A stretch of DNA of 64,000 bases. Origin: an uncultured virus (IMG/VR IMGVR_UViG_3300047539_000147) (lineage: Duplodnaviria; Heunggongvirae; Uroviricota; Caudoviricetes). The notes beneath the pieces were generated by a model. That model was not told the DNA's origin and ran no database searches. It was given only the letters and a program-made list of their open reading frames with translations. Where the stretch lies: the IMG/VR virus record IMGVR_UViG_3300047539_000147. The stretch is one strand, 5' to 3'. Below, piece by piece: positions 18,451 to 60,583 of the stretch. The translations under genes were made by a program, and so were the position numbers. The number at the start of each line of letters is the position of its first letter. The stretch's first letter is position 1.

Positions 18451-18616
18451 AAGACGAACGGCACGCGCCGGTTGGGCCGTTGCTTGAAACAACGGCCAAA
18501 CGATTGAAGTGTGATCTGATGTGGGAAAATTGGCTGTTCGGTAAAGTCTTTGAGGTGTAGGCGGTGAGTGTGAACGCTCACGCGAAGCGATCTTGGGGCA
18601 CCGATTTGGAGCGACC

Positions 18617-25085: not shown

Positions 25086-26285
25086 CTACCGTTGGAGTGT
25101 TACGACAAACTCCTGGCGCATGGTGATAACGCGCCTTACATCCGAAGACCTGCCACTAGCGTTGATCACTATGGGGGTCTTCTTGCTTGCGAAAGCCCTT
25201 GACCGGAGCGAAACCAATTCGAACCCGAATTTCCGCATGGTATCTGCGACGAACCGATCCAAGTACAAGCGCCGGTTCTCGACATTCCGCCGCGCAACCA
25301 CAAAAATCGCATGTGCCTTCGGAGATGCGACAGCAGCTATCTCGGAGCAAGAACGAAAGAGATCCGTCAAGTAGTTTCGTACCCGCAGACTGCCAGGGCC
25401 GTCGCGCCGACCGTGCCAGTACTCACTGACGTCAAACTCAGTAGGAGCCTCATCGCTACGACGACCGCCTAAACAGACTCGATCAATCTCGCCAGCAGTC
25501 TTGAACTGCACATCAAGTCGGGCCAGATGCCGAACGACGCCTAAACAAATTGAGGACATCCCACCATAGCCAACCGTGGTGCGCGAATCACCGTAAGGCG
25601 GCGAAGACACGACGACATCGAATCCGCGCCGCTCTCCATGTACCCGCAAGACGGATTCCAAATCCCGTGCATCACCTATACAGAACTTGTACCTGCTGAC
25701 AACCTGTGAAGAAGAATGCGCCTCCTCTATAAACCGCCTCAATCGTTTCTTGAACACCGCCCATGGAGACACCTCGAATACGTCCCGCTCCAATTGAGGT
25801 AGTCGGTGTAACTTCCACTGTTGATTCCGGCAAAATGAGACGTCCCGAGCGGTCGCACTCAAAATCGCGGCAAGCTGGACTACCACAGTCCGCGGAATCC
25901 GCTCGCCGTTGATCCATGTAATAATCTCTGACAACTCCCTCCGGACTGGCCCCGAGAACCAATCAGCGGTTCGCTCACTCTCGAAGTCATAAAGACCGCT
26001 CCTTTTGGGTCGGGCAGCTCTCCGGCTGAGGTCTTCCAGCATTCGCAGGTGTATAGTTGAAACCTTCGCCCTCGCGATCATCAGTGCCAGTGGGTTAACA
26101 TCAACACCTACTGCGCTCACCCCACGCGAATCACTCGCGACCAAGGTTCGAGCAGTACCACAAAATGGATCAAGTATCCTGCAACCGTCCTTAACTACCG
26201 CCCCAGTTATGGCGAGCGCCAGCTCATCTGCGATCATTGCCGGATATGGATGCAGACTGCTGAATCTGGTGCGATGCGCGCTCAT
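25086..26285 (-). CDS. Alpha-class amino (probably N4-cytosine) methyltransferase, MvaI-like
   Basis: LHPYPAM, ILDPFCGTART (atypical motif I), SSPPYGDSRTTVGYG. Confidence 0.8.
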   Translation of the reverse strand: MSAHRTRFSSLHPYPAMIADELALAITGAVVKDGCRILDPFCGTARTLVASDSRGVSAVGVDVNPLALMIARAKVSTIHLRMLEDLSRRAARPKRSGLYDFESERTADWFSGPVRRELSEIITWINGERIPRTVVVQLAAILSATARDVSFCRNQQWKLHRLPQLERDVFEVSPWAVFKKRLRRFIEEAHSSSQVVSRYKFCIGDARDLESVLRVHGERRGFDVVVSSPPYGDSRTTVGYGGMSSICLGVVRHLARLDVQFKTAGEIDRVCLGGRRSDEAPTEFDVSEYWHGRRDGPGSLRVRNYLTDLFRSCSEIAAVASPKAHAIFVVARRNVENRRLYLDRFVADTMRKFGFELVSLRSRAFASKKTPIVINASGRSSDVRRVITMRQEFVVTLQR

Positions 26286-26770
26286 GGATTGCAGGCCTCT
26301 ATGATGCGGTGTGCGACGTCATCCGCAGTCAGTCCGCTCGTGTCGATGTCTATAGGAGTCGGCGAGTTTCTAGATTCGACGTAGAGACGAGTTCTAAGCA
26401 TGTCATCGTCTGCGTCCCGCGCCCTAAACGCGTCGTCGCCTCCGCTACCCCGGCCAGCAAATCGCAGTTGCCGTTCCGTCTCGGAGCACAGTAAACGAAC
26501 GAGAATGACACCTGGCACCTCGGTCAATACGGAATCCAAAAATGTCCCCTCGATAATCAACCGATCTGTTGTGGCCGCAATTCTGCGAGTGGCATCATCA
26601 ATAATCCGATGGTCAGCGTTTGCGAGCTCGGAAGCACTGCGATTGTGCTGTCTCGCATATTCCTTAACGCTCTCGCCGCAATGCCGGACCGGCACCCCCA
26701 AATGCGCACCGAGGATTGTGGCGACCGCGGACTTCCCGACGCTTGAGCGTCCAAATATCGCAATGACCAT
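26282..26770 (-). CDS. Nucleoside monophosphate kinase, archaeal cytidylate kinase-like
   Basis: IAIFGRSSVGKS P-loop, CGESVKEYA, LIIEG, ERQLRFAGR lid; ATGA overlap with downstream MTase. Confidence 0.8.
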   Translation of the reverse strand: MVIAIFGRSSVGKSAVATILGAHLGVPVRHCGESVKEYARQHNRSASELANADHRIIDDATRRIAATTDRLIIEGTFLDSVLTEVPGVILVRLLCSETERQLRFAGRGSGGDDAFRARDADDDMLRTRLYVESRNSPTPIDIDTSGLTADDVAHRIIEACNP

Positions 26771-26775
26771 AGCCC

Positions 26776-27981
26776 CTAGTCCTTTCTGAAGACGCACAGG
26801 TATTCCTGAGAATCGGAACCCAGACGGTCAGAGACCCGGCGCCGAGTCGGGCGCCGCGTGACCGGGCCCCACACCGGCCGAAGAAACCTCGTGACTGCTT
26901 TGAGTACTGATTCGGGAGCTTCCTGAAACTTTCTCGAAGAGCCGATAACAATTGCGCAATAGCCACCAGTTCTCAGTACTCGACTGAATTCGCCTGCGGA
27001 CGTCTCAATTGCAGCCAAGTAATTCTCGTACTCGCGGAGGCGATCTCGCCGATATCGCGCACCTATTTCATTCACTTTGTCAGTGCCAAGGGGCCACTGA
27101 TGCCACAGATATGTCAAGCGATTCGCACGCGTGTAGTCTATCATCCCAATGTACGGCGGAGACGTGACGACAAGATCTACAGCGTTGTCATAGAATGGCA
27201 GGCTCCTGCTATCACTGCGGCTTACCATTGCACTACCGCCCGACACTGGCCGACTGTGCGCTGATCGCAACACGTCTATCGCGTGCGAGAGTCGCTGCAA
27301 AAATGCGAGGCGAGCATCGCGCCATGCCAATGATTTCGGACGCACATTGTCGGCCACCCATCCCCAATGGTGGCGCCTATGTTTCCGCCCCGGCCGCCCT
27401 GATATTGGTGAGGGCGAGATACTGCCAAACAGGGTGTCTGAGAACAACATCTGTAGCACTTCGGACGCCGCAGGTCCCTCGACACTTTCAATAATCCGCC
27501 AGATGCCACGAAGCTGAGAAAGCGTGTCTGGGTGATACCAGTGACTAAGCTCCGCGGCTTCGCCCTGGCCCAGCATGCCCCCGTGGTCAACACCGACGTC
27601 GAGGCGGGTGCCAATGACCTCTCCAACTGCGCGGAGGGCCGCCTCGATTTCTGGAGATGCAAGCATCGAGCATTTCGCCTTACTGATCAGTACGGCCATG
27701 GGGCTGAAGTCCGATAGCACCGCGCTCCGACCAAGCATAAAGGCTTCGGCTCCAGTCGTGCCGCTGCCGCAGAACGGGTCCAAGACGACCTGGCCCGCGC
27801 GAGATAACGTCTGGACCAAGAACGATGGAATCTGTGGTATGAAATTTCCAGCGAACCAGTGCAGCGAGTGGACGCTGTTTGGTATCGTGGTCGCCCCCGG
27901 AAAGTTCCAATCCACCGCGTCGAGTTTCGACTTGATTGCGGCTTCTTCTTTGGACGTAGTGTTCACGAGGGCTGACGCCAT
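26776..27981 (-). CDS. Alpha-class amino (probably N4-cytosine) methyltransferase
   Basis: HSLHWFAGNFIPQIP, VLDPFCGSGTT, VVTSPPY. Confidence 0.85.
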   Translation of the reverse strand: MASALVNTTSKEEAAIKSKLDAVDWNFPGATTIPNSVHSLHWFAGNFIPQIPSFLVQTLSRAGQVVLDPFCGSGTTGAEAFMLGRSAVLSDFSPMAVLISKAKCSMLASPEIEAALRAVGEVIGTRLDVGVDHGGMLGQGEAAELSHWYHPDTLSQLRGIWRIIESVEGPAASEVLQMLFSDTLFGSISPSPISGRPGRKHRRHHWGWVADNVRPKSLAWRDARLAFLQRLSHAIDVLRSAHSRPVSGGSAMVSRSDSRSLPFYDNAVDLVVTSPPYIGMIDYTRANRLTYLWHQWPLGTDKVNEIGARYRRDRLREYENYLAAIETSAGEFSRVLRTGGYCAIVIGSSRKFQEAPESVLKAVTRFLRPVWGPVTRRPTRRRVSDRLGSDSQEYLCVFRKD

Positions 27982-27984
27982 GGG

Positions 27985-29244
27985 TCAGAAAAGAGATGCT
28001 TCACATGTTCGACGCACCGCATAGCAGCGCGCGCCAAAGAAGTCTTGGACGATGCCGGCAATCGTGGCCGCCTCCGTCGCGGTAAAGGGGCTCTTTTTCG
28101 GAGAACCACCACCCAGAAGCCATTCAGACGAGTCTTCGCCAAGTTCAACATCGCCATCTGACTGGACAAAGATTCGGACACGGCGTTTTCGCTTGTCTTT
28201 GATGCGGTAAGAAAAGTACTCCCTCCCGATCCTATCGGACACTATCGCCGAGAACCTCTTGAGGTCTGACAACTGAGGCGAAAGGCCTTGAACCCATAAC
28301 AATGGACTAAGGTCCCACACGTCACCGAGCATCCAACGACGCGTCGTCTCTTCAATCATACGGTCGCCAGCAGTGGACAGCCTGGTTAGATACTCCAGGT
28401 CGGTCCACTTCCAATCGTCAAGCGTGAAGATGCCGATCCCGTAGGCCCTAACGGTCGAATAGAGAAGCATTAACTTCCCCGCGAAGTCTGCTTCCGATAG
28501 CATGAGACGAGCATACACTCTCTCGCGAAGGCCTAGCCATGCACGAATGAGCGGAATCGCGTCCGGAGAGAACATCAGGTCTCCTGCGGGCGTCACGCCA
28601 GTCATCAACTCTGCAACTTTGATCGGCGACACCATGGAGCAGTCGAGACCCATGTGGTAGGCAATGCGAGTGACATTGTCAAGATTGTCGATGTCCATGT
28701 CCCCTGCGATCAACTTTCCAAAGGCGCCACGACCGCTGATCAAGTCGAATAACTCACCGATACGGCGTTGTGCATCTACGCGGAACGCTCGCAGCATCCA
28801 CTCTTTCAGCTCTGATTGATGTCCGAGAAAGAGCTGGAGGTCGATCCCACCGACATCGGGCACTTCGCCTCCGGCGAGTAGCAATGCCCATTTTCGCTCG
28901 TGATTGAACCCCGTCTCAACATACTGCAGGGCCTCCTCTACGAGGTGCCCAAATGGCGATATTGCTGTATCGTGGATAAGCGCAGCCGCCTGCAAAAGCA
29001 ATTGTTCGTCACGATGAAGGGACTGGCAGAAGCCAACGCGGCTGCAAAGATACGCTGTGCCAAGAGCATGCTCGAAGCGGGATGTTCCTGATATCCCCGG
29101 CATGTCTAAAGAGTCAATGTTCGACAGTCGGATGTGACGCAGTCGCTGAAGCAACGGGCGTCCTACTAGATCGGCGATTTCATCCGAAAGGGCGACATCA
29201 CCATAGAGGACATCTAAATAGGCGATATTAGGGGGCTTAGCCAC
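27985..29244 (-). CDS. HD-domain phosphohydrolase, SAMHD1/dNTP triphosphohydrolase-like
   Basis: LQRLRHIRL, SRFEHALG, ALIHDTAISPFGH, DIDNLD. Confidence 0.88.
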   Translation of the reverse strand: MAKPPNIAYLDVLYGDVALSDEIADLVGRPLLQRLRHIRLSNIDSLDMPGISGTSRFEHALGTAYLCSRVGFCQSLHRDEQLLLQAAALIHDTAISPFGHLVEEALQYVETGFNHERKWALLLAGGEVPDVGGIDLQLFLGHQSELKEWMLRAFRVDAQRRIGELFDLISGRGAFGKLIAGDMDIDNLDNVTRIAYHMGLDCSMVSPIKVAELMTGVTPAGDLMFSPDAIPLIRAWLGLRERVYARLMLSEADFAGKLMLLYSTVRAYGIGIFTLDDWKWTDLEYLTRLSTAGDRMIEETTRRWMLGDVWDLSPLLWVQGLSPQLSDLKRFSAIVSDRIGREYFSYRIKDKRKRRVRIFVQSDGDVELGEDSSEWLLGGGSPKKSPFTATEAATIAGIVQDFFGARCYAVRRTCEASLF

Positions 29245-30361
29245 CAGTTTTCTCCACTCTCACGGGATTGGTCGTGTCGATCCGGGCAGGCCCCACATAA
29301 ATATCCGAATATGTTTGGAGGAGCAGAGAATCAACGTCTGAAGCGGTAGGCTCGACAAATACGGTCACCATGCCACCCCATGCATGTTCCGATGGTAGGA
29401 CGTGCCTAAGGAATATCCTGTACTGCTCTGGAGATTCGAGGTCGATGAGAGCAGAGCAACCCTCATAGACTACTAGAGTCGGGTTGCGAACCTGACCGCC
29501 AGATTCATCCTTGAGTTTGTTGAATGCCCTTGCTGTCGCCGTATGGACACCGGCGTAGGAAGGGCGGGAGGTAACTGCAATGACACCTTTGCCAGTGATC
29601 TCAGCGGTCCTTTCGAGATGCACCGAGTCAGTAAAGCCAAAATGCGGCGTATATGCATCAATAACGGCCACCCGCCGGGCGTGTGCTTGATTCTCCAAGA
29701 CCTTCGCAGAAGCGAGGCTGTCTATAAGCTCAAAAGGATGGCGAATGCAGGTCGTGTATTGCACATAGCAATCTTTGTCAAGGAGGTCAGCGATGATGGC
29801 GACCAGGAATTCATCTGTTTGGGACAGACGGCGTTGGCAGATTGATATCGAGGGGGACGTAGCCCATCTGTGCTGTGGCACAGTCTTGAAGTCTCGGCGG
29901 ACTCCCGCGAGAATGATGTCATTCGGATTGGTATCGCTTAGGAGAATGCGCAGTGCATCTTCAGTCAGTTTCGGAGGTGTGTGCTCATAGGACGGCTTAC
30001 GGCGGAGTCGTCGCAAGAGATGCTTTGCGTATCTAACTACGGAGGTGTTCCTTATGAGATGGTCGTCGCGAAAATGGACATGACGATTGTGCAACCGCCA
30101 AACGTTGTAGACAACCGTCGTAAGTGCTATGCAAAGAAGAGTAGCAGCAACTCCTTCTGAGACTGTCTTTGCCCGCGGAAAGCTGGCCGGAATTAGTGAA
30201 GAGATAGATGCAATGAAAATGGAGACTGTTACAAGTGATGCGATTGGGTAGATGAACGTTGTGATGTATGGCGTCTTTCTCTCCCTCGCCAACAGGGCGT
30301 AGAAGGCAAGGAGGAATGCCAGGAGGGCGAACGCGGAAGTGACTAGAGTATTGGCAGGCAT
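29237..30361 (-). CDS. Membrane protein: about 3 N-terminal TM helices + KaiC/RAD55-like RecA-fold domain without Walker A
   Basis: Hydrophobic first ~90 aa; YVQYTT..RHP, VAVIDAYT, LVVYEGCSAL, TVFVE pattern; no GxxxxGK[ST]. Confidence 0.6.
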   Translation of the reverse strand: MPANTLVTSAFALLAFLLAFYALLARERKTPYITTFIYPIASLVTVSIFIASISSLIPASFPRAKTVSEGVAATLLCIALTTVVYNVWRLHNRHVHFRDDHLIRNTSVVRYAKHLLRRLRRKPSYEHTPPKLTEDALRILLSDTNPNDIILAGVRRDFKTVPQHRWATSPSISICQRRLSQTDEFLVAIIADLLDKDCYVQYTTCIRHPFELIDSLASAKVLENQAHARRVAVIDAYTPHFGFTDSVHLERTAEITGKGVIAVTSRPSYAGVHTATARAFNKLKDESGGQVRNPTLVVYEGCSALIDLESPEQYRIFLRHVLPSEHAWGGMVTVFVEPTASDVDSLLLQTYSDIYVGPARIDTTNPVRVEKTGG

Positions 30362-46364: not shown

Positions 46365-48421
46365 TACTTGAGGTCTTCCGCGATTGAGCCAATCCCCACG
46401 TAACACCATGACAGCCTGCCATTTATGGTCCTCTGGCGCTTCTCAACTGTTGGCCGCAACTGGGCGATGGCGCGGCCGAGGGCCGTCTTGCTTACGGTTG
46501 GCCGGCCTTTCGCCACGCAGTCCTGGTTGTAGTCCTGCCAAAGCCGGTCGGCGGGGATCACGCATCGGGTTCGAGCACCGTATTGCGGTCGAGCCACACG
46601 GCGACGGGATCAGTCGTTTGCCGGAATTCGTCCATGGCGCGCCGTATGGATTCGCTCTCACTGAGCCCGTGGCCGCGGATCGCTTTGAGGGCTTCGAGGG
46701 CCTTGTTCAACACGCCGCTGAGTTCGGTGGGATCGGCCAACATCGCGTCCAACTGGTCGCGAGGGAGTGTGCCCGGATCGCCCGCGTGAAATGTTCGCTC
46801 GAAGGGAACGACCACCCACCGGCGGAAGAACGCCGACGATGCGTCCTGGCTCTTGGGCGGGTGGTTGGCCGAAAAGATCAGCCGCGCGAACGGCACGAAT
46901 TCGAAGGACTCCTCGAACTTCCGCTCGGCCAGCAGGGCATCGCCGCCGGTGATCGCCTTGAAGATCGACGTGCTGGAAAGGTCCTCGCTGGGCAAGTCGG
47001 GGCAGATGTTCGCAAGTCTACCGACAAGGCGCGCGACCGAGAAGCGGTCGTTCTCCAGCCGGTGAAGACTGATGGCCGCCACATTCTGCCGGCCAATAAA
47101 CGCCAGCACGGCACGCAGGTAGGTGGATTTTCCGTTCGCGCCGTCGCCCGTCAGCAGGACAGCCTTCTGAATCGAAGTATCCGGCGTCGCCAGCCATGCC
47201 GGGATCTCCCACGCGATGGCCTCCGAATCGCCGGGAAATACCTCGCCGATGAACTTGTCCCACAGCTGGACACCGCGCGCGGGTCGAACTTCACGGGCAA
47301 GCTGAACCGGCGATAGGAAATCGGGTGAGTGTGGTGAGAGCGCACGGGTGTTGACGTCCAGCAGGCCATTCAGCACGTTGACGACATCCACCTTGGGCCG
47401 TTCCCACAGCCGCGGGGCATCGACCTCGATGTATTTCACCACCTCCTCGGCCTTGTGGCTGCTCCATTTTGAGGACAGCCGCATGCGCTCCAGAAGCTGT
47501 TTCACCTGCTGACGAACAAAGGGGGCGCCATCCGAGTGGTAGTTGCCGCCGCGGAAGATGTACAGCCGCCCGCCGACGTCCTGGGCAAATCGGTGCCGAC
47601 CTGAGATCAGTTCGGCAATCTGGTAAACGCTGATCTCGTCATCGTCTGCGGGTTTCTCGAAGTCGGCGGCTTCCACCAACTCCCAGACTTTCTCCGGGCC
47701 CACCTTCGCCAGCAGGTCGTCGATTCCTTTTCCCTGAGCGATGTCCCAGGTGATGAACGCAACCTCCGCGCCGCGGGTTCGCAACTCTCTCGCCAAGAGG
47801 CTTCTCGCGACTTCAACCTGCTCGTTTTTTTCCGCATCCGCGTCAAAAGCGATGATCACGCGGCGGCCTTCCCAAACAACGATGTCGAGGTCGGGGATCA
47901 CGCCTTTGACGTCGCGCCGGTCGCCGTTCGGCCCGGTCGTCTTGCCTACCGTGCCACGCCAGTTCCAAACGCCTCCCAACCCGATCGGCAAGAATCGGGG
48001 TGCGATTGAGTCGTGATTGGCGAGACGCCACAGCGCGAGGGTCTTGAATTCGCCCTCGGTCACGATCACCGGTGTAGCAACCGCCTTCACCAAGTCCAGG
48101 GAAATGCCTGGCACGAAGTAGATCATGTTCCTTCGGCCCGGCGGCGACAAATACTTCCCGCGCTCCCTTGGTTTGCCGTCCTTGTACTCTATTTCGGGGT
48201 GGTCGCGGCGCAGGCGCCACTCACGAATGCGGGATTCACCCGGCAGGAAGTATGGGATCGCCAGTCCCTCATACGAAGCATGATCCTGCCGGCCAACGAG
48301 GGAACGCCCCGTGCCGGAATCGACGCGCCGGATTTTGGCTGCTGCGGCAAGTTCGCGGTCAATCCATCGCCCCGCGAGACTCGCGTAGTCCGCATCCGTG
48401 AGTGCGGTCCGGTTCCCTCAT
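46364..48421 (-). CDS. DUF3854/Toprim + D5/P4-type SF3 primase-helicase, several indels
   Basis: VTEGEFK, IAFDAD, KGIDD (Toprim); GDGANGKST, KAITGGD, IFSANH, FFRRW (SF3). Confidence 0.88.
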
Positions 48422-48960
48422 TCACTGGTGGAGGTCCGTTCGCTGTCGCATGCATGATCACGCCCCGACGGGGATAAGCCCGCCTCTGTGAACGCTGCCC
48501 GGAGCCGCCAGATGGCGCGATAGACGGTCGCGCGGGAAACACCGAGGCATTGGGTGGTCTCTATGGCCGAGTGTCCGATCAAGCAAAGCGCCACGTTCCG
48601 GTCGAACGGGGACAGGCCTGCCAAGACCCGAGAGACATCCGCCCGTAGGTCGGTGAGGATGTTCGGCGCTGCCAGCCCGAGGAGATTCTCAATCGGCTCT
48701 TCCCGGAATTGGCCGGACCGCTCCGAGCGCATCGCGCGCACCAGCGATGTCATCCTGTTGGCGACAACTCGTTCCGAGAACGTGCGCCAACTCCCGCGCC
48801 GCGGATCATATGCTTGGCGTTTCCGCCACAGTTCAAGGAGAGCTTCCTGTTCCAGGTCGCGGCGGGAGTCGGTCGGCAGCCCATACAAGGTCACTATCGT
48901 TGCCGCGCGCACGGCGGCAAGACGACTCGTGCGGAAAGGACTGCTCGAAAACGCTGTCAA
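48418..48960 (-). CDS. ECF-like sigma-70 factor
   Basis: DLEQEALLELWR..YDPRRGSWRTF (region 2); LGVSRATVYRAIWRLR (region 4). Confidence 0.85.
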   Translation of the reverse strand: MTAFSSSPFRTSRLAAVRAATIVTLYGLPTDSRRDLEQEALLELWRKRQAYDPRRGSWRTFSERVVANRMTSLVRAMRSERSGQFREEPIENLLGLAAPNILTDLRADVSRVLAGLSPFDRNVALCLIGHSAIETTQCLGVSRATVYRAIWRLRAAFTEAGLSPSGRDHACDSERTSTSE

Positions 48961-49307
48961 CCACAGCGGCCTCCGTTGGCGTTCGGGCGGTGCTCGATTT
49001 CCATGGAAAACGGGAGGCCGTGCCGCAATTCGAGACAGCGAATTTCGCCCGCGTCTACGGCGCGCACGTACTCGAAGAACTCCGCCATCTGGGTTTTCAA
49101 CTCGAAGTCCCCGAGAGGAGGCGTGTTCCCCGCCGTGTCCACGGAACCGAACTTGACGCCGCGCACTGTTGTGGGCCAGGGATCAAGTACCAGCTCACCG
49201 CGTTCGATCCGCAGAGACTCAAACCGGCCAAAACCAACATCATGCATCTCGTGCAGGAACCGGCGTTCGGACGCTGACAGGTCGTGCGTCGAAGTAGGTC
49301 TGTTCAT
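48957..49307 (-). CDS. Hypothetical protein coupled to sigma gene
   Basis: GAGGTG RBS; 4-nt overlap with sigma start; GFGRFESLRIERGELVLDP. Confidence 0.7.
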   Translation of the reverse strand: MNRPTSTHDLSASERRFLHEMHDVGFGRFESLRIERGELVLDPWPTTVRGVKFGSVDTAGNTPPLGDFELKTQMAEFFEYVRAVDAGEIRCLELRHGLPFSMEIEHRPNANGGRCG

Positions 49308-49584
49308 CGCACCACCTCTTGCGGAGCCGGACTGAGAGCCTTGTTCTCGGCAAACCAGGCGACGAGGTCGCAACGCCCCTGGGCGTCCTGCGCCCGCTTG
49401 TAACACGGGCGCAGCCGCGATCCGCGTTCGACGCCCGGAAGCGTGTTGTTTTTCTTGTAGCGCCGTTCCCGTTCCACGATTGCAGATTAGGCTGTTATGC
49501 GAAGAGTGTGTTGTCAGCGGACGGCGGCTGGACGCTGGATGGGCTTACTAAGCGTGGCTGAATCGAGCCAACTGGCGAGGAAAT

Positions 49585-50250
49585 TTATTTCGCTGGACGT
49601 TCGCTGGACGCAAGTTCCTGTATGACGCCCTTCACGTCCTGGAGCCTATACAGGTACTTTGGCTCCCTGGGACGGCGATCATCCTGCTTCTTCCAGCCGT
49701 CCAGTTTGTGCTCCCGATACCTGTCCAGTCTCTTACGCAGCGCCTCCCTGCCGACGCTGAAGGATTCAGCAAGGCGGACATGGGTGTACCACCCTTGCTC
49801 GTCGAGCGTAACAATCGACGCGCTCGATGCAGAGGCATCGCGGAGGCCGGCATCTCCAGAACCATCCCTCAGATTCGAGACCTCCTGCCACTTCTCGCCG
49901 CGTCGGTAGGCCGTGATGATCTGGATCGTCCTATCCGTGAGCGGACGATCACAACTCGTGCATCGGTATTCGTCGTCTTCATCCAGCGCTTCCTGGTATT
50001 CCGACCGAAGCGCCGCCATTTGACAGTACGGGCACTCGATCATTTCAACGCGGCGGAGCACTCCCTCCTGCGCGAACATATCGAGGGCCGAGCGCATCTG
50101 ATTCGGATCGATGTTCAGGAAGCTGGCCAGGTCATCAGGTCGGATAACCTCCGCCGTTCCCATCGCCCTCAATTGGGAATCGAGTTGCTCGAAGACACTC
50201 GCGAGGTCCGGGTGTTGTTCAGCTAAGCGCGCGCACTCTGTGAAGAACAT
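49585..50250 (-). CDS. Hypothetical protein: winged-helix-like + Zn finger (CPYC..CTSC) + C-terminal HTH-like domain
   Basis: Motifs visible in 221-aa ORF; GAGGT RBS. Confidence 0.65.
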   Translation of the reverse strand: MFFTECARLAEQHPDLASVFEQLDSQLRAMGTAEVIRPDDLASFLNIDPNQMRSALDMFAQEGVLRRVEMIECPYCQMAALRSEYQEALDEDDEYRCTSCDRPLTDRTIQIITAYRRGEKWQEVSNLRDGSGDAGLRDASASSASIVTLDEQGWYTHVRLAESFSVGREALRKRLDRYREHKLDGWKKQDDRRPREPKYLYRLQDVKGVIQELASSERPAK

Positions 50251-51277
50251 ACCTCACCACGTCCTCGGTGTTCGGCGTTGGAAAGTTGACGCGCGACTTC
50301 GCGCCCACGATGATCACGTGGACGTCGCCCGTCAGGGGGTTGGTGGCAGGCCCGGTTTCTTGACCGCCGCCAGCCAGTAGAAGTTGCCTAGGTGGCCGAC
50401 GCTGTTCTTCCGCACGCTATCCATCGCATCATCGATGAACGCCTCGCCGAGCACCGAGGTCCCGTGGGCTCGGGCTGCGTGCCGAGACCCGCCTGCCTCG
50501 CAGCGACCGATAGTCGATTCCGTGAGAACGCGCCTCGGCCTGACCATTCTTCTCGATCTCGTGAAGCTTGGCGGATCACCGGACGGAGATCGACTGCACC
50601 GAACTGCTTGATGTCGAGCCATGGCTTGACGAGCTGAAAGAACTGCTCAGCGAGTTCTCGTAGTCTCCGTCCTCTTGTAGCTGGGTAATCTGGAGCATCG
50701 CGACGTTAGCGTTCAAGTCCCACTCGAAGGCCGCGAGCGTGCGCGTCAGGTGGTGCATGTAGGCCTTGAGGGTAATCCTCTCGCCGCTTTCTGTTTCCTT
50801 CTCTTCGTCGTGCTCAGGCGTTCGCTCGGTGTATTCCCGCTTCTCAACGGCCGTGACGCGCAACCTTCCATCCGCATGCGTGACGGACGACAGCGTGAGC
50901 TTCTCCGGGAGGATTAACGGAAGCCTGGCGTTGAAGAGCTTTCCGAGACGGTGTTGCTTCAGGAGACCCACACGTGATCGGGGTCTTTCCACGCCTGTAC
51001 ATCGTTCCGAGGACCGCTGGTAGAGGAAAACATGCTGTTTCCCCCACGGGGCCACGGAGTCGAGGAAATCCACCAGCTGCTCGTATGTGAGGTCGCCCTC
51101 ATCGAGAGCCTCTTGAATCCTCTCGCGCAGGTCCTCCTTCGTGCCGGACTTGGGTAGTTCGACCTCCTTCAGGAAATCCTGAATGTGCGACTTCCTGAGG
51201 GCTAACACGAAATCGATCAGCGCCTGTTGTTCTTCGGCACTATAGTCAGGCGGACCGAGCAGTTTAATCGATTCCAT
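50219..51277 (-). CDS. Hypothetical protein with N-terminal SAP-like domain, several indels
   Basis: FLKEVELPKSGTKEDLRERI (SAP); fragments continue to YVLHRVRALS, overlapping next gene. Confidence 0.6.
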
Positions 51278-51853
51278 AACCCGTCCCGTCACAGTGCTGG
51301 TTGAACAGCGACCGCTTTTCCTGGAAACGAATCCGCCGGGATACCAGGCCACGCTTCGCGGTGGCGAAGCGAGGAAAGAATGGTCGAGGAACATCAACCT
51401 CTTGGCCGATAGGCGGCCTCGTTGCTGAAATCAGCGAACGACTTCGCGCACGGCTGGCACATGCGTGGGCATGACCCGACCGCCAGCAGTATTCAGGCTG
51501 ATTAACAGCGCGATTTCTGGATTCGCTCGGGGGTGCACAAGACTCCCTCAGCGGTTTGGCCAACGACTGCTGCGCCACAAGCCTCGGGCTGTAGTGATCT
51601 GGCATATAAATCCAGCCCCCTTCGCAAGAGAGATCCACGCTGAATTCGGAATGCCCGATCTGGCCCGAGCCTCCCCGTCCAACGGGTACAAGGGCTCTCT
51701 TTGATTCATGGTACCAAACAACAGGATGCACTGTAATTGTTTTACCTCCTGTCCGGATGCCGCATTTCGGGCGTGCCGACGCCAAGTGAAGCGAATCGCA
51801 AGACTTGGGAGGGCGATACGAGATAGAATCAGCCATTGGAGCTCATCTAGACG

Positions 51854-54384
51854 ATGGCGCGCGCACCGAAGAAGACCACATCCGAAAAAAAGCCGATCGA
51901 GCAGTACGAGCACAAGGGCAAGAAGCGGCTGAACAATCCGCCTGTCGGCCTGGTGACGCCGGAGACGGACAACGAGGAGCCGAAGAAGACGTATCGCTAC
52001 GACCCTCACCTGGACCCTCAATTGATCTGGGCCGGCAAGAATGAGCGCACGTCGTTTGAAGTGCCGTCGATTTCGCTGCACGTCCACGAGCGTATCGACC
52101 CGCGCACGATTGTCGAGGCAGTCAAGAGGAAAAACGGCGGCCCGCAAATGTCGCTGTTTCAGAATCCCGCCGAAAACCCTCCCCTCCGCGAGGCGGTCGA
52201 GTTTTATAAACACAAGCACAATTGGTCAAACAGGCTGATCGCGGGCGACAGCTTGCTGGTGATGAACTCCCTGCTGGAAAAGGAGGGAATGGCGGGGCAG
52301 GTGCAAATGGTGTACTTCGACCCGCCGTACGGAATTACATACGGGTCCAACTTTCAGCCGTTTGTCCGGAGTAAAGAGGTCAAAGACAAGGACGAGGATC
52401 TGACCGCAGAGCCGGAGATGGTCAAGGCCTTCCGTGATACCTGGGAACTCGGTCTGCACTCGTATCTGACGTACCTGCGGGACCGGCTCCGCTTAGCCCA
52501 CGAACTATTGTCGGATTCTGGTTCGGTCTTCGTACAGATAAGCACAGAGAATCTCGAATACGTATCCCTGATTCTCGACGAGATTTTTAAACCAACTAAC
52601 AAGGTGGAGTTGATTTCTTTCAGAAAAAAGACAATGCCACTTGGGGGTACTCTGCTGGAGGGCAACTGCGACTACCTGCTGTGGTACGCAAAAGACAAAT
52701 CACTAGTGAAGTATAGGAAGGTGTTTCAACCAAGCCTTGTCGAGGGAGACTCGCACTGGAACTACGTTGAACTCAAGGACGGTGTGCGGCGCCAACTCAC
52801 GCGAGAAGAGATTAATAATCACAGTCTGCTTCCGCCTGGAAGCGATGTGTACCAGTTGATTGGCCTTTACCCGACCGGCACTTTTGACACAGGAATCTAC
52901 GATTTCAAACTGGATGGAGTGACTTATAAGCTGCCGCCCGGCAAGTGTTGGAAGACCCCAATCGAAAGCATGCGGCGGCTGGCGGCGGCTCGGCGTCTAC
53001 AACCTTATGATGCCGGCAAAACGCTTCGCTATGTTTTGAAGCATTCAGATTACCCGGTGACCCCGCTCGGCAATGTCTGGCAGGACACATCGGCTCCTCC
53101 CGACAAGCGATATGTCGTTCAGACCTCTAACATCGTCATTCAGCGGTGCTTGCTGATGACTACGGACCCCGGCGACCTCGTAATTGACCCGACTTGCGGA
53201 GGTGGCACAACAGCTTTCGTTGCCGAGCAGTGGGGGAGGAGGTGGGTTACCTGCGATACGTCGCGCGTTTCGGTTGCAATCGCGAGGGAGCGGCTTATGG
53301 CGGCTGTCTTCGAATACTACGAATTGGCGCACGCAGACGAAGGAGTGAGTAGCGGCTTCAAATACAGGTCGGCGGCTCACACTACTCTGAAATCAATTGC
53401 CAACAATGAGCCACCAGGACAGGAAATCCTCTATGACGATCCCGTTCGAGACAAGAAGAGGGTTAGGGTAACTGGGCCATTCACCGTCGAAGCCGTCCCC
53501 GCACCCGTTGTTCGCTCCCTCGATGAAGCAGACGCGAGCATTGATCCCATGCCAGCCGATGCCTCGGTGGCCCGTACTGGCGCAACCGCGCGTGACCGGG
53601 ACTGGCGGGACGAGTTGCTGCGCACTGGCATCCGGGGCAGATCTGGTCAGACTATCGAGTTCACCCGCGTCGAGCCTTTGCCGGCGACCCGCTGGCTCCA
53701 TGCCGACGCTGAGACCAAAGAAGGACTTGCCGCAGCGCGTCGTGGTTTCATTCGGTCCCGAGCACGCGCCCATGGAGCAGCGCCAAGTCGAACTGGCCAT
53801 TGAAGAAGCCGGGAAGCTGGTGCCGAGGCCGAAGATGATCGTCTTCGCCGCGTTCCAATTCGACCCGGAAGCGGCGAAGGACATCGACGAACTGAATTGG
53901 CCGGGAGTGACGCTGCTCAAGGCGCAGATGAACGCGGACCTGCTCACGGAAGACCTGAAGAAGAAGCGCGCCAGCAACGAGAGCTTCTGGCTCATCGGCC
54001 AGCCGGACATCGAGGTCCAACCCATCGGCGATGGTGAGGATAAGGGCAAGTATCGGATCACGGTCAATGGCTTCGATTACTACAACACCAAGAACGGCAA
54101 GATCGATTCCGGCGGCACCGAGAAGATCGCCATGTGGATGCTCGATCCCGACTACGATGGCCGCAGCCTCTTCCCTCGCCAGGTGTTCTTTCCCAATGGC
54201 CGGCGAGGATGATGGCTGGGCGAAGCTGGCCAAGAACCTGCGGGCTGAGATCGATCCAGATCTGATCGAGGCGTACCGCGGGACAACATCGCTGCCGTTC
54301 GCTGCCGGCGCAAACAAGCGCGCCGCTGTGAAGATCATCGATGACCGGGGCATCGAGAGCCTCCGGATTGTAGACCTGGAGTAA
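51854..54384 (+). CDS. mod: Type III restriction-modification methyltransferase (Mod), frameshifts near 53725 and 54195
   Basis: NRLIAGDSL, YFDPPYG, DPTCGGGTT, C-terminal AVKIIDDRGIES. Confidence 0.9.
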
Positions 54385-54387
54385 TTG

Positions 54388-57300
54388 ATGCCGTCCGGCA
54401 CAATCGACCAACTCATCGTCAACTCGCCCTACAGGGAGCCAGAGCAGCACTGGAGCTACGAGCGCGAGTCACGCTCATTCACGCTGAAACCCGGACGCAG
54501 GCCGGCGGGCTACGTGACGGCGACACCTGGCGCGAAGACCTTCGACGATCCAGGCATCTTTCGCGAACTGCCCCTGGTGAATCAAATCCGGCCGCGCGTG
54601 AAGGCATGGCGGGAGGCAGACCACCCAGGTGTCTCCGGCGTCACCAAGAAGCTGCTTTCGCACTGGCACGATGTCGAGCAGCGGAACGGGCGGCGCTTCT
54701 TTTTCTGCCAGCTTGAAGCTATGGAGACCCTGGTCTGGCTGACTGAGGCGGCGGCGTCGGAGCGCGTCGGCATCAATATCCCCGGCGACGGCGGGACCTT
54801 CACCAGGATCTGCACCAAGATGGCCACCGGCTCTGGCAAGACCATCGTGATGTCGATGGTGGTAGCCTGGCACGTTCTCAACAAGGTTGCTTACCCGCAG
54901 GATAAACGCTTCTCAAAGAACGTCTTCATTGTCGCGCCGGGCTTGACCGTAAAGAGCCGTCTTGGAGTGCTCGTGCCAGGCTCTGCGGACAACTACTACG
55001 ACCTGTTCAACATTGTGCCCATGGGCCTGCACGACCAGATGCGGCAGGGCAAGGTAATGATCCGTAACTGGCACACGCTGATGCCGCTCGATCCGGATGC
55101 CGGGCCCAAAGTGATTAGAAAAGGTCCGGAGAGCGATGAAGCGTTCACCAGGCGCACCATGGAGGACTTGGCCAGCGCTCAGAATCTGCTCGTCATAAAT
55201 GATGAAGCTCACCACGCCTGGCGCGTCCCGCCAAAGCTGTCAGCCCAGGATTTCGGAAAGCAGGAATTGGAGGAGGCCACGCTGTGGATCGGAGGCCTGG
55301 ACCGCATCCATAAGACGCGCGGTATCCTTTCCTGCTATGACCTGACCGCCACGCCGTTCGCGCCCACGGGAAAGAAGAGCGACGAGGAGACCTTGTTCGG
55401 TTGGATTGCCAGCGATTTCGGTCTGAATGATGCGATTGAATCGGGTTTGGTAAAGACGCCACGTGTCGTGGTCCGTGATGATGGGACGCTGACGAAGGAT
55501 TACAAATCGCGCCTTTACCACATCTACATGGACGACGAGGTTCGCGATGACCTCAACCGCAAAGCGGAGCCACACGAACCGCTGCCTGACCTTGTCCAGA
55601 ACGCCTACTACCTGCTCGGCAAGGATTGGCTGGAAACCTCGAAGCGCTGGTCGGAGGCGGGGTTCAAGGTGCCGCCGGTGATGATCACCGTGGCGAACCG
55701 GACGGAAACTTCGTCACGTATCAAATACGCATTTGACCGCGGCAAGATTCGTATCGATGAATTGTGCGTGCCGGAGAAGACGCTGCAGATCGACTCAAGG
55801 GTCCTGGACAAAGCGGAGGCCCGCGAAGAGGCGCCCGAGATCGCAACAGACATTCGCAGAACCCGCCGAGGAGGAGGACAACGGCCAGCCCGCTGCAAAG
55901 GTATCGAAAAAGGACCAATTCGAACTGCTGCGGCGTATCGTGGGTAGCGTCGGCCAAGCGGGTCAGCCCGGCGAGCAGATCCAGAATGTGATCTCGGTCG
56001 GCATGCTTTCTGAGGGCTGGGACGCGAAAACCGTAACGCACATCATGGGGCTGCGCGCGTTTACGAGCCAACTATTGTGCGAGCAGGTGGTGGGGCGCGG
56101 ATTGCGGCGAACGTCCTACGACGTGAATCCCGAGACCGGTTTGTTCGAGCCGGAATACGTCAACATCTTTGGCGTACCGTTCACCTTCCTGCCGCATGAG
56201 GGTGGCGAGGGCGCGCCGCCACCGCCGCCGCCTCCGAAGACGGAGATCAAGCCCCTGTCGGAGCGGGTCGCGTTCGAGCTCACGTGGCCGAACATCGTGC
56301 GCATCGATCACGAGTTCCGGCCGAAGCTCACGCTCAACACGGCTCTGGTGAAACCGCTGCTCATCGATGCCGCCGAAACACGGACTATCGCCGAGCTGGC
56401 ACCTATCGTCGAGGGCAAACCAGAGATCCGAATGGTGAGCGAGATCAACCTGCAAGAGTTGGGGCAGAAGTTCCGGATGCAGCGCATCATTTTCGAGACG
56501 GCGCGCGACATCTTCGACCAGATGCGGCCCACCTGGAAGGGCAGCCGAGAAGCCCTGCTTGCGCAGTTGATTCGGCTGGTGGAGCGATTCCTCGCGAGTG
56601 GCAAGATTGACATCACGCCGCCCCTGTTTACCCAGGACCCATTGCGGCGGCGCATTGTGCTCACGCTCAACATGAATCGCATCGTGCAGCACATTTGGGA
56701 AGCGATCCGATTCGAGAACACCCAAGCACTGGCGTTGGTATTCGACACGGAGCATCCGATCCGGAGCACGGGCGACATGCGTTCGTGGTACACGGGCCGG
56801 CCATGCGAAATGACATCGCGGTCCCACATCAACTTCTGCGTGTACGACAGCACCTGGGAGGCATCGGAATCGTACGTATTCGACAAGAACCCGAACGTGT
56901 CGGCGTGGGTGAAGAACGACCATCTTGGCTTCGACGTGCTGTACGTGTTCAAGGGCGTCGTCAAGAAATATCGCCCGGACTTTTTGGTCCGGTTGAACGC
57001 GGGAACCATGCTCGTGCTCGAGGTGAAAGGCCAGGACTCACCCGAGAACCGCACCAAGCGGGAATTCCTGGCCGAGTGGGTACGTGCCGTCAACGAAAAT
57101 GGCGGGTTCGGGCGATGGGAGTCGGACGTTTCATTCCACGTCAAGGACATCGAGGGCATTCTTGCCCGCCACTCATCCGCATCCGTGGTGATCGGCCCAG
57201 GCAAATCGGCGTCGATTGAAGCTCTCCAACGGCTATCCGCCCACCTTTCCATTTCGAATCAGGACATTGCCCGCCTGCTTCACGCGTCCGCCGAAATGAT

Positions 57301-57535
57301 CGTGCATTGGGAGTCGGGCGAGACTGTGATGCCGCCTGAAATGGAGGTGGCAGTTACGGCTGCGGACACTGCGCTGCGGCGGATTCTTGCGATCTTCCGG
57401 CCCGAGCGACTTCGGGATGTCATCCGGCAGAGAGTGGAGCTATTCCATGGACGCTCCGCCCTTGATTTGATTTTGGAGGGCCGCATAGAGGAAGTAGCAG
57501 ACCTCTATGTCGCGGCATTCGCGTATCAGGGATGA
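54388..57535 (+). CDS. res: Type III restriction endonuclease/helicase (Res), frameshift near 55850, with in-frame C-terminal Xre/MbcA/ParS-type antitoxin domain (about 57188-57535)
   Basis: KMATGSGKT, NDEAHH, LSEGWD, QVVGRGLR, PDF..LEVKG; tail has HTH NQDIARLLHAS and FHGRSALDLILEGRIEEV. Confidence 0.85.
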
Positions 57536-58074
57536 AGGCGACTGTTTACCACAATCATCTGCCGATCTACCGGGTCGTGAGGCGCGGCTGGCCCGATCCC
57601 ATCGACACGGCGTTCTCGCAATCTCCCAAGGTGGACAACCGATGGAATACGGTTGATTTTCCGGCGCTCTACTGTTGCTGCTCGGAGGCCGTTGCGAGCG
57701 CCATTGTGAGAGACATCTTTCGCATCACCGGAGCCACCCTCGCTGATCTCCTCGAAACCGCTTATCCGCAACTGGTAGAGATCCAGTGGCAGGGGGAACC
57801 CGTCGACATGACCGCCGAATCCGCGATTGTGTTGGCTGGCTTTTCGCCTGACTACCCCGATGGCGCGAATCACAGCCAGACTCAAATCGTTGCCATCAGT
57901 TGGCACGCCGTCGGTGCCTCAGGCGTTTTGTGTCGAAGTGCCTCGATGGCTCGCCTGGGGTTCAACGGTTGGAGCGGTGACCATGCGGCGTGGAGCGAGC
58001 TTGCCATATACACGGAGAACTGCGCTACGAAGCCGAACGTGCTGAATCGCCGGGATGACCTGGGCTGGCTGTAG
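57532..58074 (+). CDS. RES-domain toxin-like protein
   Basis: IYRV, NRWN..ALY, SQTQIVA..GVLCRSA; ATGA overlap with antitoxin-like domain. Confidence 0.8.
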   Translation: MKATVYHNHLPIYRVVRRGWPDPIDTAFSQSPKVDNRWNTVDFPALYCCCSEAVASAIVRDIFRITGATLADLLETAYPQLVEIQWQGEPVDMTAESAIVLAGFSPDYPDGANHSQTQIVAISWHAVGASGVLCRSASMARLGFNGWSGDHAAWSELAIYTENCATKPNVLNRRDDLGWL

Positions 58075-58531
58075 TCGCAGCCCCTTGTCCTGTTTCCATT
58101 CTGCCTCGCGGAGCCGATACAGGGCGAGCTTTCTTCAAATCCATCCATGTTCGCCTTTGATTGTCCCAGAGCACGATCTTTGTGAGCGCTCGGACTGCTG
58201 TTTCGGCGGTAGCGGGCGTTCTGATCGGCAGCCCCTCCCCACTCAAGATCTCCTCTTGAATCTCTGGCGCGAGGAGCAGGAGATTCATAATCTGCGTGAG
58301 CCGGGCGCGCGACACGTACCCCAACCGAGCGATGTCCGCGTAGTCGTGCACTTCGCCGCGGTTGACCATGTCCTGGAACTTGACGGCGAGAGCCATCAAT
58401 CGAGCGATTCGCGGGATGCGTGGCGGGTCGGGCACCTTGGGCACAGCCGGGCTGCGGTGCCAGCCACCCTTGCGGCCCTTCGCCGGTACGATGGTGATTT
58501 CGACCTGAAGTGTCCCGTCGTCGATACTCAT
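58025..58531 (-). CDS. Hypothetical protein associated with serine recombinase
   Basis: ADIARLGYVSRARLTQIMNLLLLAPEIQEEIL HTH; ATGA coupled to recombinase. Confidence 0.75.
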   Translation of the reverse strand: MSIDDGTLQVEITIVPAKGRKGGWHRSPAVPKVPDPPRIPRIARLMALAVKFQDMVNRGEVHDYADIARLGYVSRARLTQIMNLLLLAPEIQEEILSGEGLPIRTPATAETAVRALTKIVLWDNQRRTWMDLKKARPVSAPRGRMETGQGAATTASPGHPGDSARSAS

Positions 58532-60066
58532 CGGACTGCCTCCTTCTGAACCAGTTCCTTCACGCCGGCCGATTTGAAGCTCACCGTGACCTTGCCAGTG
58601 CGGCCGTCGTAGCCGACCTTCTCCACCAGTTGGCGCAGGAGGTTCCGCTGCTCATCAAGGTTCATGGCCTTCCACACGTCCTCGAAGGACTCCATCGTGC
58701 GGCGCAACTCCTTCTCGTCGATCCGCTGCTTCTCACGCCGCAGAATCTCCTTGCGAAGCTCCTCTGCGCGCGTTTCCCCTGCTGCGAGTTGCTCCCGGAT
58801 CTCGGCCAACCGGGCAGCCTCCGGGTTTCGAATCCGTGCGATCTGCGACTTCAGATTCTTGACGCGACCGTTCGTCGTGTTCAGTTCCTCGCGCAAACCG
58901 GTAATCATCTCCGCGAGCTGCTGCCGCGCCAAGCGCGCGGTCTCAGCAAGCACGTCTGGCTGCACGCCGACGCGCCGTATACTCTCGACAACCGCGTCCT
59001 CAACGGACGGCGCGGACACTGCGCGCGAGGTGCAGTAGCCTTCGAGTTTCTGCTGAGACCGGTAGCAGACGTAGTAGCGGTAGCGCCTCTCCTTGTTGGC
59101 CGAGTACGTCGAGTACATGCCGGAGCCGCAGCAGGAGCAGTAGATCAGCCCACGCAGCAGAGCATCGAATTTGACGCGATGGGCGTTGCCCGGTGTCCAC
59201 GCGTTCTCTTTGAGGCGCTTCTGGGCCATGTCGAAGGTCTGCTGGTCGATAACGGCTTCGTGCTCTCCGGGGAAGATTTCATCGCCCACCTTCACCTGCC
59301 CCGTGTAGAGGACGTTGCCGAGCAGTTTGTAGATGTGGCACCGGCGTAGCGCGCTGCCGCCGTAGAGCTTTCCGTCCTGTGTGGTCCATTGCTTGTTGCG
59401 CCACCCCAGCTTGTCGAATCGTTGGACAATCTCCAGAACCGGCGTTCCTTCCAGATAGAGGCGGAACATCTCTCGGATGCGCTCAGCCTCCTCGGGATTG
59501 ACGGCCAACTTCCCGGCGCGCGAGTCGAGGTCGTAGCCCAGGAGGATGTGCCCACCGGTCCACTTGCCCTTCTTCCGCGCCGCCACCTGCTTGTCGCGCG
59601 TGCGCTCCGAAATGATCTCGCGCTCGAACTGGGCGAAGGATAGCAGGATATTCAGCGTCAGGCGGCCCAGTGAAGAGTTCGTGTTGAACTGCTGCGTGAC
59701 GGAGACGAAGCAGACGCCGCGCTTCTCGAACAACTCCATCATCTTGGAGAAGTCGATCAGTGAACGGCTCAGGCGATCAACCTTGTAGACGACTACGCAG
59801 TCGATCTTGCCGGCTTCGATATCGGCCAGCAGTTGTTTCACGCCGGGCCGTTCGATGTTCGCGCCTGTGTATCCGCCGTCGCTGTACTGGGTGGGCACCA
59901 GGGTCCAGCCGTCGTGCTTCTGGCTGAGGATGTACGCCTCGGCCGCCTCGCGCTGGGCGTCGAGCGAGTTGAATTCCTGGTTCAGGCCCTCCTCCGTCGA
60001 CTTCCGCGTGTAGATCGCGCATCGGACGGGTTTTGGCGCGGTCGTGCCGTTACTGGTGGCTGCCAT
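58528..60066 (-). CDS. Large serine recombinase (resolvase + recombinase + Zn ribbon)
   Basis: IYTRKST, VDRLSRS, FEREIISER, GEHEAVI, CSCCG..YYVC. Confidence 0.95.
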   Translation of the reverse strand: MAATSNGTTAPKPVRCAIYTRKSTEEGLNQEFNSLDAQREAAEAYILSQKHDGWTLVPTQYSDGGYTGANIERPGVKQLLADIEAGKIDCVVVYKVDRLSRSLIDFSKMMELFEKRGVCFVSVTQQFNTNSSLGRLTLNILLSFAQFEREIISERTRDKQVAARKKGKWTGGHILLGYDLDSRAGKLAVNPEEAERIREMFRLYLEGTPVLEIVQRFDKLGWRNKQWTTQDGKLYGGSALRRCHIYKLLGNVLYTGQVKVGDEIFPGEHEAVIDQQTFDMAQKRLKENAWTPGNAHRVKFDALLRGLIYCSCCGSGMYSTYSANKERRYRYYVCYRSQQKLEGYCTSRAVSAPSVEDAVVESIRRVGVQPDVLAETARLARQQLAEMITGLREELNTTNGRVKNLKSQIARIRNPEAARLAEIREQLAAGETRAEELRKEILRREKQRIDEKELRRTMESFEDVWKAMNLDEQRNLLRQLVEKVGYDGRTGKVTVSFKSAGVKELVQKEAVR

Positions 60067-60583
60067 GTTTCCTCCCCGGCTTGCCGCCAAGCCCGAAGAA
60101 CGCGAACCCGTTCCACGGCGTGCCGGTAGCCTGGCGCACGGCGGAACTCAGGGAACGGTGGATCTGGCCACCGCACTCGAAGCCGTCCTCCCGAACGCGA
60201 ACGACGACATCCTTACCCCGGTAGCGTCGCACCAGTTCGGTGCCGGGCATCGGGAGCCGCGGGTCCTCGGTCGGCGCGACGCGCGTCTCAAGCGTGCGGC
60301 TCTCGTCCAGATCCACTTTCAAAAAGTTTTTGGGTGCCCGAATGCGGAGGTCAGCGTCGTCGGCGATCTCCAGTGCGCGGCGGCGCGCGCGTTCCGAGAG
60401 GCCGCCGTAAGCGTTCGCCTGCATGCGCCAGGCGATTCGCCGGAAGAGGAACTGTTTGTGATTCGACCGGCTCGATTCGCTGAAGACATCACGGTACTTG
60501 TCCTTAAGCTGCCCGACGGTCATGTGGCGCAAGGCCTCGATCTCTTCCCGCAGGCCCGTTGATCTATTGGTCTCTGTTTTCAT
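60050..60583 (-). CDS. DUF2924 protein
   Basis: RIAWRMQANAYGGL, PGTELVRRY, SLSSAVRQATGTPWNGFAFFGL. Confidence 0.9.
   Translation of the reverse strand: MKTETNRSTGLREEIEALRHMTVGQLKDKYRDVFSESSRSNHKQFLFRRIAWRMQANAYGGLSERARRRALEIADDADLRIRAPKNFLKVDLDESRTLETRVAPTEDPRLPMPGTELVRRYRGKDVVVRVREDGFECGGQIHRSLSSAVRQATGTPWNGFAFFGLGGKPGRKHGSHQ

Follow-up and report, generated by a model that had tools for sequence, protein, structure and literature searches.

The window analysed here, which is the whole stretch of 64,000 nucleotides and covers nearly all of a virus record of 64,474 bases, carries a Type III restriction subunit (Res) that is joined in frame to an antitoxin, with a RES-domain toxin directly downstream. 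The Res-antitoxin fusion is genuine and not recent. The explanation that we favour, with evenly balanced confidence, is that a headless RES-Xre pair, that is, one whose antitoxin has no native N-terminal domain, has become fused to Res in a prophage defence slot and acts as an addiction lock. In this reading the antitoxin probably locks in whichever gene lies upstream, rather than specifically guarding Res. Both components are of known kinds, and their covalent architecture is apparently undescribed within the literature searched: neither a Res-antitoxin fusion nor a headless, partner-swapping antitoxin clade was found there.

The cassette and its prophage slot

The element is a prophage with genes for a gpA terminase, an S49 protease and capsid E, and near-identical DNA is present in peat and permafrost metagenome runs. 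Its host is likely a member of the Acidobacteriota, because most of the nearest named genomes in which the toxin family occurs belong to that phylum. The cassette has the order mod, res/antitoxin, RES, and is flanked by a primase/sigma module on one side and a serine recombinase/DUF2924 module on the other. The features are the following:

46558..49406, minus strand: left border of the slot, with a primase-like gene, a sigma-like gene and a small ORF; common to the related prophage L111
51854..54384, plus strand: Type III Mod methyltransferase (PF01555; PADLOC MTase_III, E 1e-129), broken up in the window by two 1-base insertions of assembly origin, near 53725 and near 54190; the counterpart in the related locus L001 has 853 aa
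54388..57172, plus strand: Type III Res of the BPTD_3080 family (residues 1-928) with intact helicase and nuclease motifs; interrupted by a single 1-base assembly insertion near 55853
57173..57217, plus strand: 15-residue linker in frame with Res, bridged gap-free by independent contigs
57218..57535, plus strand: headless antitoxin core (HTH and MbcA/Xre-like C-terminal helices), fused to Res
57532..58074, plus strand: RES-domain toxin, 180 aa, ATGA-coupled (PF08808, E 1.6e-10)
58025..60583, minus strand: right border of the cargo slot, with a small conserved ORF, a large serine recombinase and DUF2924 (Pfam)

Prophage L111 has both borders (82-83% at the DNA level) but different cargo, namely an SMC-type LmuB-like gene (Lamassu-like) and a methyltransferase. 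Since other defence cargo is held between the same borders in this one close relative, the position appears to be a variable defence slot. No recombination site or repeat was seen at the fusion junction, and no sigma-70 promoter was found in the cassette, the sigma-70 model being uninformative for this host.

The restriction genes have the features of a Type III R-M system, with mod followed by res, helicase motifs and a PD-(D/E)xK nuclease. The mod-res order, the intact motifs and a score above the family cut-off (1104 bits for Res P0103, cut-off 800) are shared with the BPTD_3080 Res (NF046055). Unlike that family, the window Res has a C-terminal extension of 120 residues, whereas in the nine relatives for which the end was inspected Res stops at 927-953 aa.

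The junction between Res and the antitoxin

Downstream of the PD-(D/E)xK region (PDFLV at residue 863 and LEVKG at residue 877), the res frame continues for about 120 further codons up to a TGA at 57533-57535, and the ATG of the RES gene at 57532 overlaps this stop as ATGA. Both the extension of Res into an HTH and MbcA-like tail and the coupling of the RES gene to it had been described in the sequence-only reading, and both were confirmed. The same reading had cautioned that, owing to a GTGA at 57188-57191, a single spurious base could join Res to a separate antitoxin and thereby fake the fusion. This worry was a reasonable one, because res is split over two frames and mod over three in the window as assembled, and three other 1-base errors do occur in these genes. 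The extra bases near 55853, 53725 and 54190 are absent from independent contigs, and the broken frames of mod and res go back to assembly errors away from the junction.

The region 57165-57195, for which a read-level check had been proposed, was examined in Logan contigs of runs X1 and X2; runs X3-X7 gave partial coverage and were excluded from the bridging analysis. Record 15 of run X2 (56337-57444) crosses this region with no gaps and with four listed substitutions, all before 56530. Records 5 and 6 of run X1 (57109-57336), a run that is possibly the sample from which the window was derived, span the junction, again with no gaps in either; one of these contigs shows no differences, and the other shows 26 (89% identical) and represents a second strain. 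The frame thus stays fused, and the caveat was refuted. Additionally, the search for other Res-antitoxin fusions, also proposed in that reading, yielded six proteins of 1048 aa that correspond to four alleles. P0092 belongs to a 90% cluster of 23 members; the 15 that are listed comprise six full 1048-aa fusions, three partial proteins carrying the fused tail, three unfused Res of 934-936 aa and three antitoxin scraps of 50-59 aa. Protein P0103 is 100% identical to the window over residues 1-489 and 98.9% identical over residues 483-1048. Moreover, locus L001 carries on a single contig an intact Mod (853 aa), the Res-antitoxin protein (1048 aa) and RES (180 aa). A frameshift artefact at 57165-57195 was therefore ruled out by the bridging contigs together with the full-length fused proteins, and with the intact fusion in L001 also speaking against it we regard an assembly artefact as extremely improbable.

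The Res parts of the four fused alleles are 95-97% identical. Between the window and L001, Res shows a dS of 0.25-0.50 with a dN/dS of 0.05-0.06, which suggests that the fused Res is under purifying selection, and restriction activity is predicted. In the same comparison, the linker plus antitoxin gives a dS of 0.12 and a dN/dS of 0.37, and RES gives 0.075 and 0.23, respectively, both estimates being based on few changes. The difference in dS indicates that recombination has separated the history of Res from that of the pair, while the existence of four alleles and the dS of Res indicate that the fusion has persisted. The window Mod is 64% identical to that of L001, and the window Res 96%.

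Unfused Res proteins that are 91-95% identical to the fused ones also exist, and of the seven distinct close Res alleles three (P0097, P0104 and P0106) lack the fusion. Fused and unfused alleles are separated by one fixed difference, a number within the range of 0-3 that is given by all 35 possible four-versus-three partitions, and co-adaptation of Res to the fusion was rejected on this basis. The branches of the Res tree are open, so that a single origin and a later loss of the fusion were not separated. For the DNA downstream of the three unfused alleles, viral contigs gave only relatives of 58-64%, and the best match in 401 genomes reached 70% at the DNA level. The fused Res had no match in phage records.

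The RES toxin and the headless antitoxin clade

The 180-aa toxin matches the RES domain with 41.6 bits (PF08808, cut-off 23.2) and has 89 homologues among 444 candidates. Its structure model (pLDDT 95.8) matches MbcT best (TM 0.74, E 4e-7), followed by other solved RES toxins. In HMM alignments, R14, R37 and Y47 correspond to R27, R47 and Y58 of MbcT, and they are kept in 48, 50 and 50 of the 50 aligned relatives, respectively; S136 is also kept in the window protein. According to the MbcT study (PMC6436930), R27, R47 and Y58 are essential, E69A retains limited toxicity and S126 is dispensable. The sequence-only reading had noted that the Glu expected in the R-E-S motif is replaced, and this was correct: the position is I58 in the window and V (31), I (18) or L (1) in the 50 aligned relatives, which makes the replacement a family trait. 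Decay of the toxin by loss of this Glu was thus rejected as a locus-specific damage. Given the limited toxicity of MbcT E69A (PMC6436930), the missing Glu lowers strict RES membership more than it lowers function. R37, W38, Y47, R135 and E156 are invariant in all 50 aligned sequences. It is likely that the protein is an active NAD+-consuming enzyme, whose product would be ADPR-1P or another compound. The toxin family was found in none of 45 candidate stretches of viral contigs and had no match in plasmids.

The antitoxin core has a weak, sub-threshold match to an Xre-like HTH Pfam family. A structure model of a full-length family member (P0131) placed MbcA, NatR and VPA0769 at the top ranks with weak E values (>0.001); for MbcA and NatR, which ranked best, E was 0.03-0.13 at a probability of 1.0. 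The pair resembles MbcTA, RES-Xre, ParST and NatRT in its toxin fold, in its R/R/Y active-site residues and in the order of antitoxin and then toxin, with the antitoxin lying directly upstream of RES in the window and in nearly all related loci that have upstream DNA. It differs from them in that the window antitoxin forms the C-terminal end of a restriction subunit with 928 residues, in the family-wide replacement of the RES-motif Glu alongside an invariant CxC, R135 and E156, in a toxin score below the NCBIfam cut-off (15.6 versus 110 bits), and in an extra helical N-terminal domain of about 140 aa in the normal antitoxin of this family.

This native domain was defined in a survey of the best 150 of 201 antitoxin representatives, 110 of which have at least 200 aa. 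A profile built from 85 of these 110 long representatives matched 99 of them; the domain itself gave no PDB match with E ≤0.001 and no Atlas match. In a tree of 41 chosen rows, the window core falls into one ten-sequence branch (support 100/99), and none of its ten members matches the profile. As judged from these sequences, the clade has lost the usual N-terminal domain of the family, and the head is derived from whatever is located upstream. The toxins assigned to the clade also form one branch (100/98), most of these assignments resting on contigs of equal size. Besides the four Res alleles, the heads are a Ser/Thr kinase domain (P0093), an ECF sigma factor (P0095; in L042 the DNA shows RES coupled downstream), a two-TM membrane protein (P0094, which is without the conserved last residues), short peptides (P0129 and P0277) and a stub of Mod, in which residues 1-28 of P0278 match Mod 1-28 at 19 of 28 positions (E 7e-9); P0282 is a second allele of this stub. 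Among the relatives, fused loci were seen on DNA for Res (L001) and ECF (L042) only, and the other partners were assigned through equal-sized contigs; for P0278 and P0094 no RES partner was identified. Whatever the head, the C-terminal half of the clade is more conserved (85% mean identity) than the HTH half (66%).

Two further fusions, to a LuxR-type protein (L007) and to a TIR protein (P0217), were observed outside the clade; they are distant and read-through-like.

These data bear on a neutral explanation, according to which an ordinary RES-Xre pair, or a defanged one, became joined to res when the intervening stop was lost, and a start at GTG 57185 or a weak toxin leaves the fusion without effect. 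Val occupies the position of GTG 57185 in all four fused alleles, with the codon GTG in both the window and L001, and family members occur directly behind housekeeping genes; the two distant fusions point the same way. The RES Glu is replaced, a study of GndRX indicates that a RES-Xre pair can be non-toxic (PMC12457610), and dN/dS is higher on the pair than on Res. However, no Shine-Dalgarno-like motif was seen in the 25 nt before the in-frame GTGs 57185 and 57188, and the entire clade lacks the native head and bears five foreign ones. Moreover, none of the 50 aligned sequences departs from R37, Y47, R135 or E156, and dN/dS is 0.05-0.10 at the larger distances where dS could be estimated. We consider a neutral passenger rather unlikely.

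Proposed roles: guarding, tagging and locking

The sequence-only reading had proposed a guarded restriction system. Spelled out, this would mean that the tether evolved so that binding, unfolding or degradation of Res by a phage anti-restriction protein pulls the antitoxin off RES, with NAD+ collapse and abortive infection as the outcome. A part of this proposal holds: the fusion has been confirmed, the fold of the pair is RES-Xre/MbcA-like, the residues essential in MbcT are kept and the cassette occupies a prophage defence slot, so that the putative toxin would likely be set free if the Res protein were removed. The part that does not hold well is a guard specific to Res, which is doubtful, as the same core is found on four unrelated N-termini, near-identical Res proteins are unfused, and L001 is the only one of the fetched TA loci, many of them short, with a Res match.

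Several observations are nevertheless in line with guarding. The slot holds Lamassu-like cargo in L111, and the fusion is kept over four alleles, even while the pair was apparently exchanged (the P0109 antitoxin is 79-83% identical under a Res of 95-97%). The kinase and ECF sigma heads are signalling proteins. Precedents exist as well: Type III EcoR22I kills upon exposure to Ocr and Ronin releases RonA (10.1101/2023.04.06.535777), PrrC is a guardian of an RM system (PMC12707154), standalone RES proteins (aRES) defend through NAD+ depletion (10.64898/2026.01.28.702374), and phage RES-HTH pairs have been proposed to block superinfection (PMC9503650). The window shares with PrrC-EcoprrI, Ronin, EcoR22I and PARIS a toxic effector in an RM locus that could be released when an RM protein is disturbed; in contrast, the effectors of those systems are separate proteins or the nuclease itself, and the available portions of their descriptions contain neither a covalent Res-antitoxin nor a RES toxin. 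With aRES it shares a RES domain in a defence context, but aRES is a standalone two-domain protein without an antitoxin (10.64898/2026.01.28.702374), whereas the window RES is single-domain and has one.

Against guarding, the 28-residue Mod-stub head offers nothing to guard, three of the seven close Res alleles are unfused, and the fixed changes linked to the fusion do not exceed chance. Thirteen other Res loci had no antitoxin or RES match. The RES-Xre pair usually stands alone among housekeeping genes, with no RM gene among 103 neighbouring ORFs of 27 longer loci (one helicase had a weak ResIII match), and a consistent linkage of the RES effector to RM genes, as in a guardian, was thus not found. 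Additionally, a tail on a flexible tether could well stay in place when an inhibitor binds to Res. Guarding of Res in this sense is, in our view, unlikely. By analogy with the solved Xre-RES complex, which is 4:2 (PMC12204516), the fused antitoxin could also oligomerise Res.

A broader version would make the headless antitoxin a portable integrity tag, bolted onto the C terminus of carriers that phages target, namely the restriction subunit, the kinase, the ECF sigma factor and the membrane protein, such that attack on a carrier or its loss would free the NAD+-destroying toxin. This is a still less probable proposal; if true, it would amount to a guard system built from modules, in which the protein under guard can be exchanged.

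The addiction lock, our preferred reading, needs no Res-specific sensing. The native head having been lost, the antitoxin would depend on the upstream reading frame. Mod, Res-antitoxin and RES would be on one transcript, and antitoxin would be produced solely as the C-terminal end of the upstream protein, its translation borrowed from that gene, so that a frameshift, loss or silencing of the upstream gene would free the putative NAD+-consuming toxin. In effect, both the translation of res and the element itself would be locked in by addiction. The free C-terminal helix may plug the active site of the toxin as in MbcA and NatR, for which structural reports describe a last helix that blocks the toxin cleft (PMC6436930; PMC11535050), the last ten residues of MbcA being needed for neutralisation (PMC6436930). 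Any N-terminal passenger would then be tolerated, because the C-terminal helix does the plugging. After an exchange or deletion of the cargo ahead of the pair, the survivors would be limited to joints at which the antitoxin frame is preserved, which would account for the series of Res, kinase, ECF sigma factor, membrane protein and Mod stub; the stub (P0278/P0282) is the in-frame deletion survivor expected under a lock. Restriction would proceed normally beside the lock, and a phage that degrades Res or silences the operon could trip the toxin as a by-product. The lock and guarding are therefore compatible, since a phage that degraded Res would also set off the lock.

Several considerations weaken the lock. 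The pattern of in-frame survivors is partly one of ascertainment, because protein collections list only in-frame products. Owing to the ATGA coupling, a stop in res also cuts the supply of new toxin, so that killing requires existing toxin to outlast the antitoxin. The Mod stub shows that the lock does not prevent the loss of RM genes. The dN/dS of only 0.23-0.37 on the pair, the non-toxic GndRX precedent, the lack of the conserved last residues in P0094 and a possible separate start at GTG 57185 also speak against it.

The covalent joining of a toxin-antitoxin module to a restriction enzyme is verified here, and it is relevant to the still unsettled function of RES-Xre pairs. It also shows how guard systems could evolve in a simple way, by read-through and subsequent selection. 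Fused and unfused Res alleles of more than 90% identity and the Mod-stub derivative are natural controls, which make it testable whether the fusion stabilises cargo, guards against phage counter-defence or does neither. If it accepts any N-terminal partner, a headless antitoxin would moreover provide laboratory strains with a ready reporter or kill switch for in-frame translation.

The short-peptide member P0277 (115 aa) is recorded with a contig size of 9917, the same as that of a 122-aa RES call without R14, R37 and Y47. If the equal size means that both lie on one contig, P0277 might, tentatively, be read as an antitoxin that has come loose beside a broken toxin.

Conserved residues of the RES toxin and architectures of the antitoxin

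In the subfamily of the RES toxin encoded in the window (57532-58074), an invariant CxC motif is placed after the catalytic Tyr, and R135 and E156 are also invariant, the usual Glu being absent. The reaction product of this subfamily may differ from that of MbcT, a known NAD+-consuming RES toxin.

The N-terminal domain of the normal antitoxin of the family, which the headless clade of the window lacks, is all-helical and was modelled confidently (residues 25-150 of the full-length relative P0131; L066 6228-6650). Searches of Pfam, PDB and Atlas with this domain gave no match; it may serve in sensing or oligomerisation. The same antitoxin core also appears to be joined to a TIR-domain protein (P0217) and to a LuxR/NarL-type protein (L007 1-864), each a single sequence on a distant branch. 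In P0053, from a cluster of three members, antitoxin and RES are fused in one 300-aa frame, the RES part of which looks as if it contains a frameshifted stretch.

At two loci with pairs of the window's family, an additional RES gene adjoins the antitoxin-RES pair.

L039 7858-9217 and L079 2458-3817, minus strand: additional convergent RES gene with a 274-aa partner upstream

A MazE/PIN pair lies near this gene in both loci, and a second RES copy is present in L019 too.

The cargo slot and its surroundings

The slot was compared with that of L111, a related prophage with the same slot borders.

L111 10894-18644: LmuB-like SMC gene, two uncharacterised genes and a methyltransferase, in the slot matching that of the window
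Window 49585-51397, minus strand: SAP-domain ORF and zinc-ribbon/wHTH ORF, divergent from mod

Two more uncharacterised ORFs are present in the L111 region. Although the cargo differs, the stretch immediately 5' of mod (51515-51743) is 74% identical to L111 15994-16220, a similarity that possibly reflects a conserved promoter or RNA element. Neither ORF divergent from mod matched the defence library.

Within 51854-55947, assembly errors have put one extra base each near 53725, 54190 and 55853, breaking mod and res, and the same kind of splitting may affect other long genes of the window.

Other regions of the window

Three further regions were listed.

135-2598, minus strand: protein with receiver, purine nucleoside phosphorylase and EAD7 (PADLOC PDC-M60C, E 8e-42)
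18593-19460, plus strand: GmrSD/SspE-like gene, split, among the tail genes but on the opposite strand
25086-30361, minus strand: second cargo block, within the tail region

The second cargo block encodes two methyltransferases together with one P-loop and one HD/dGTPase-like protein, as well as an uncharacterised membrane-like protein. An uncharacterised partner is located upstream of the EAD7 gene, and the break in the GmrSD/SspE-like gene may be an assembly error.
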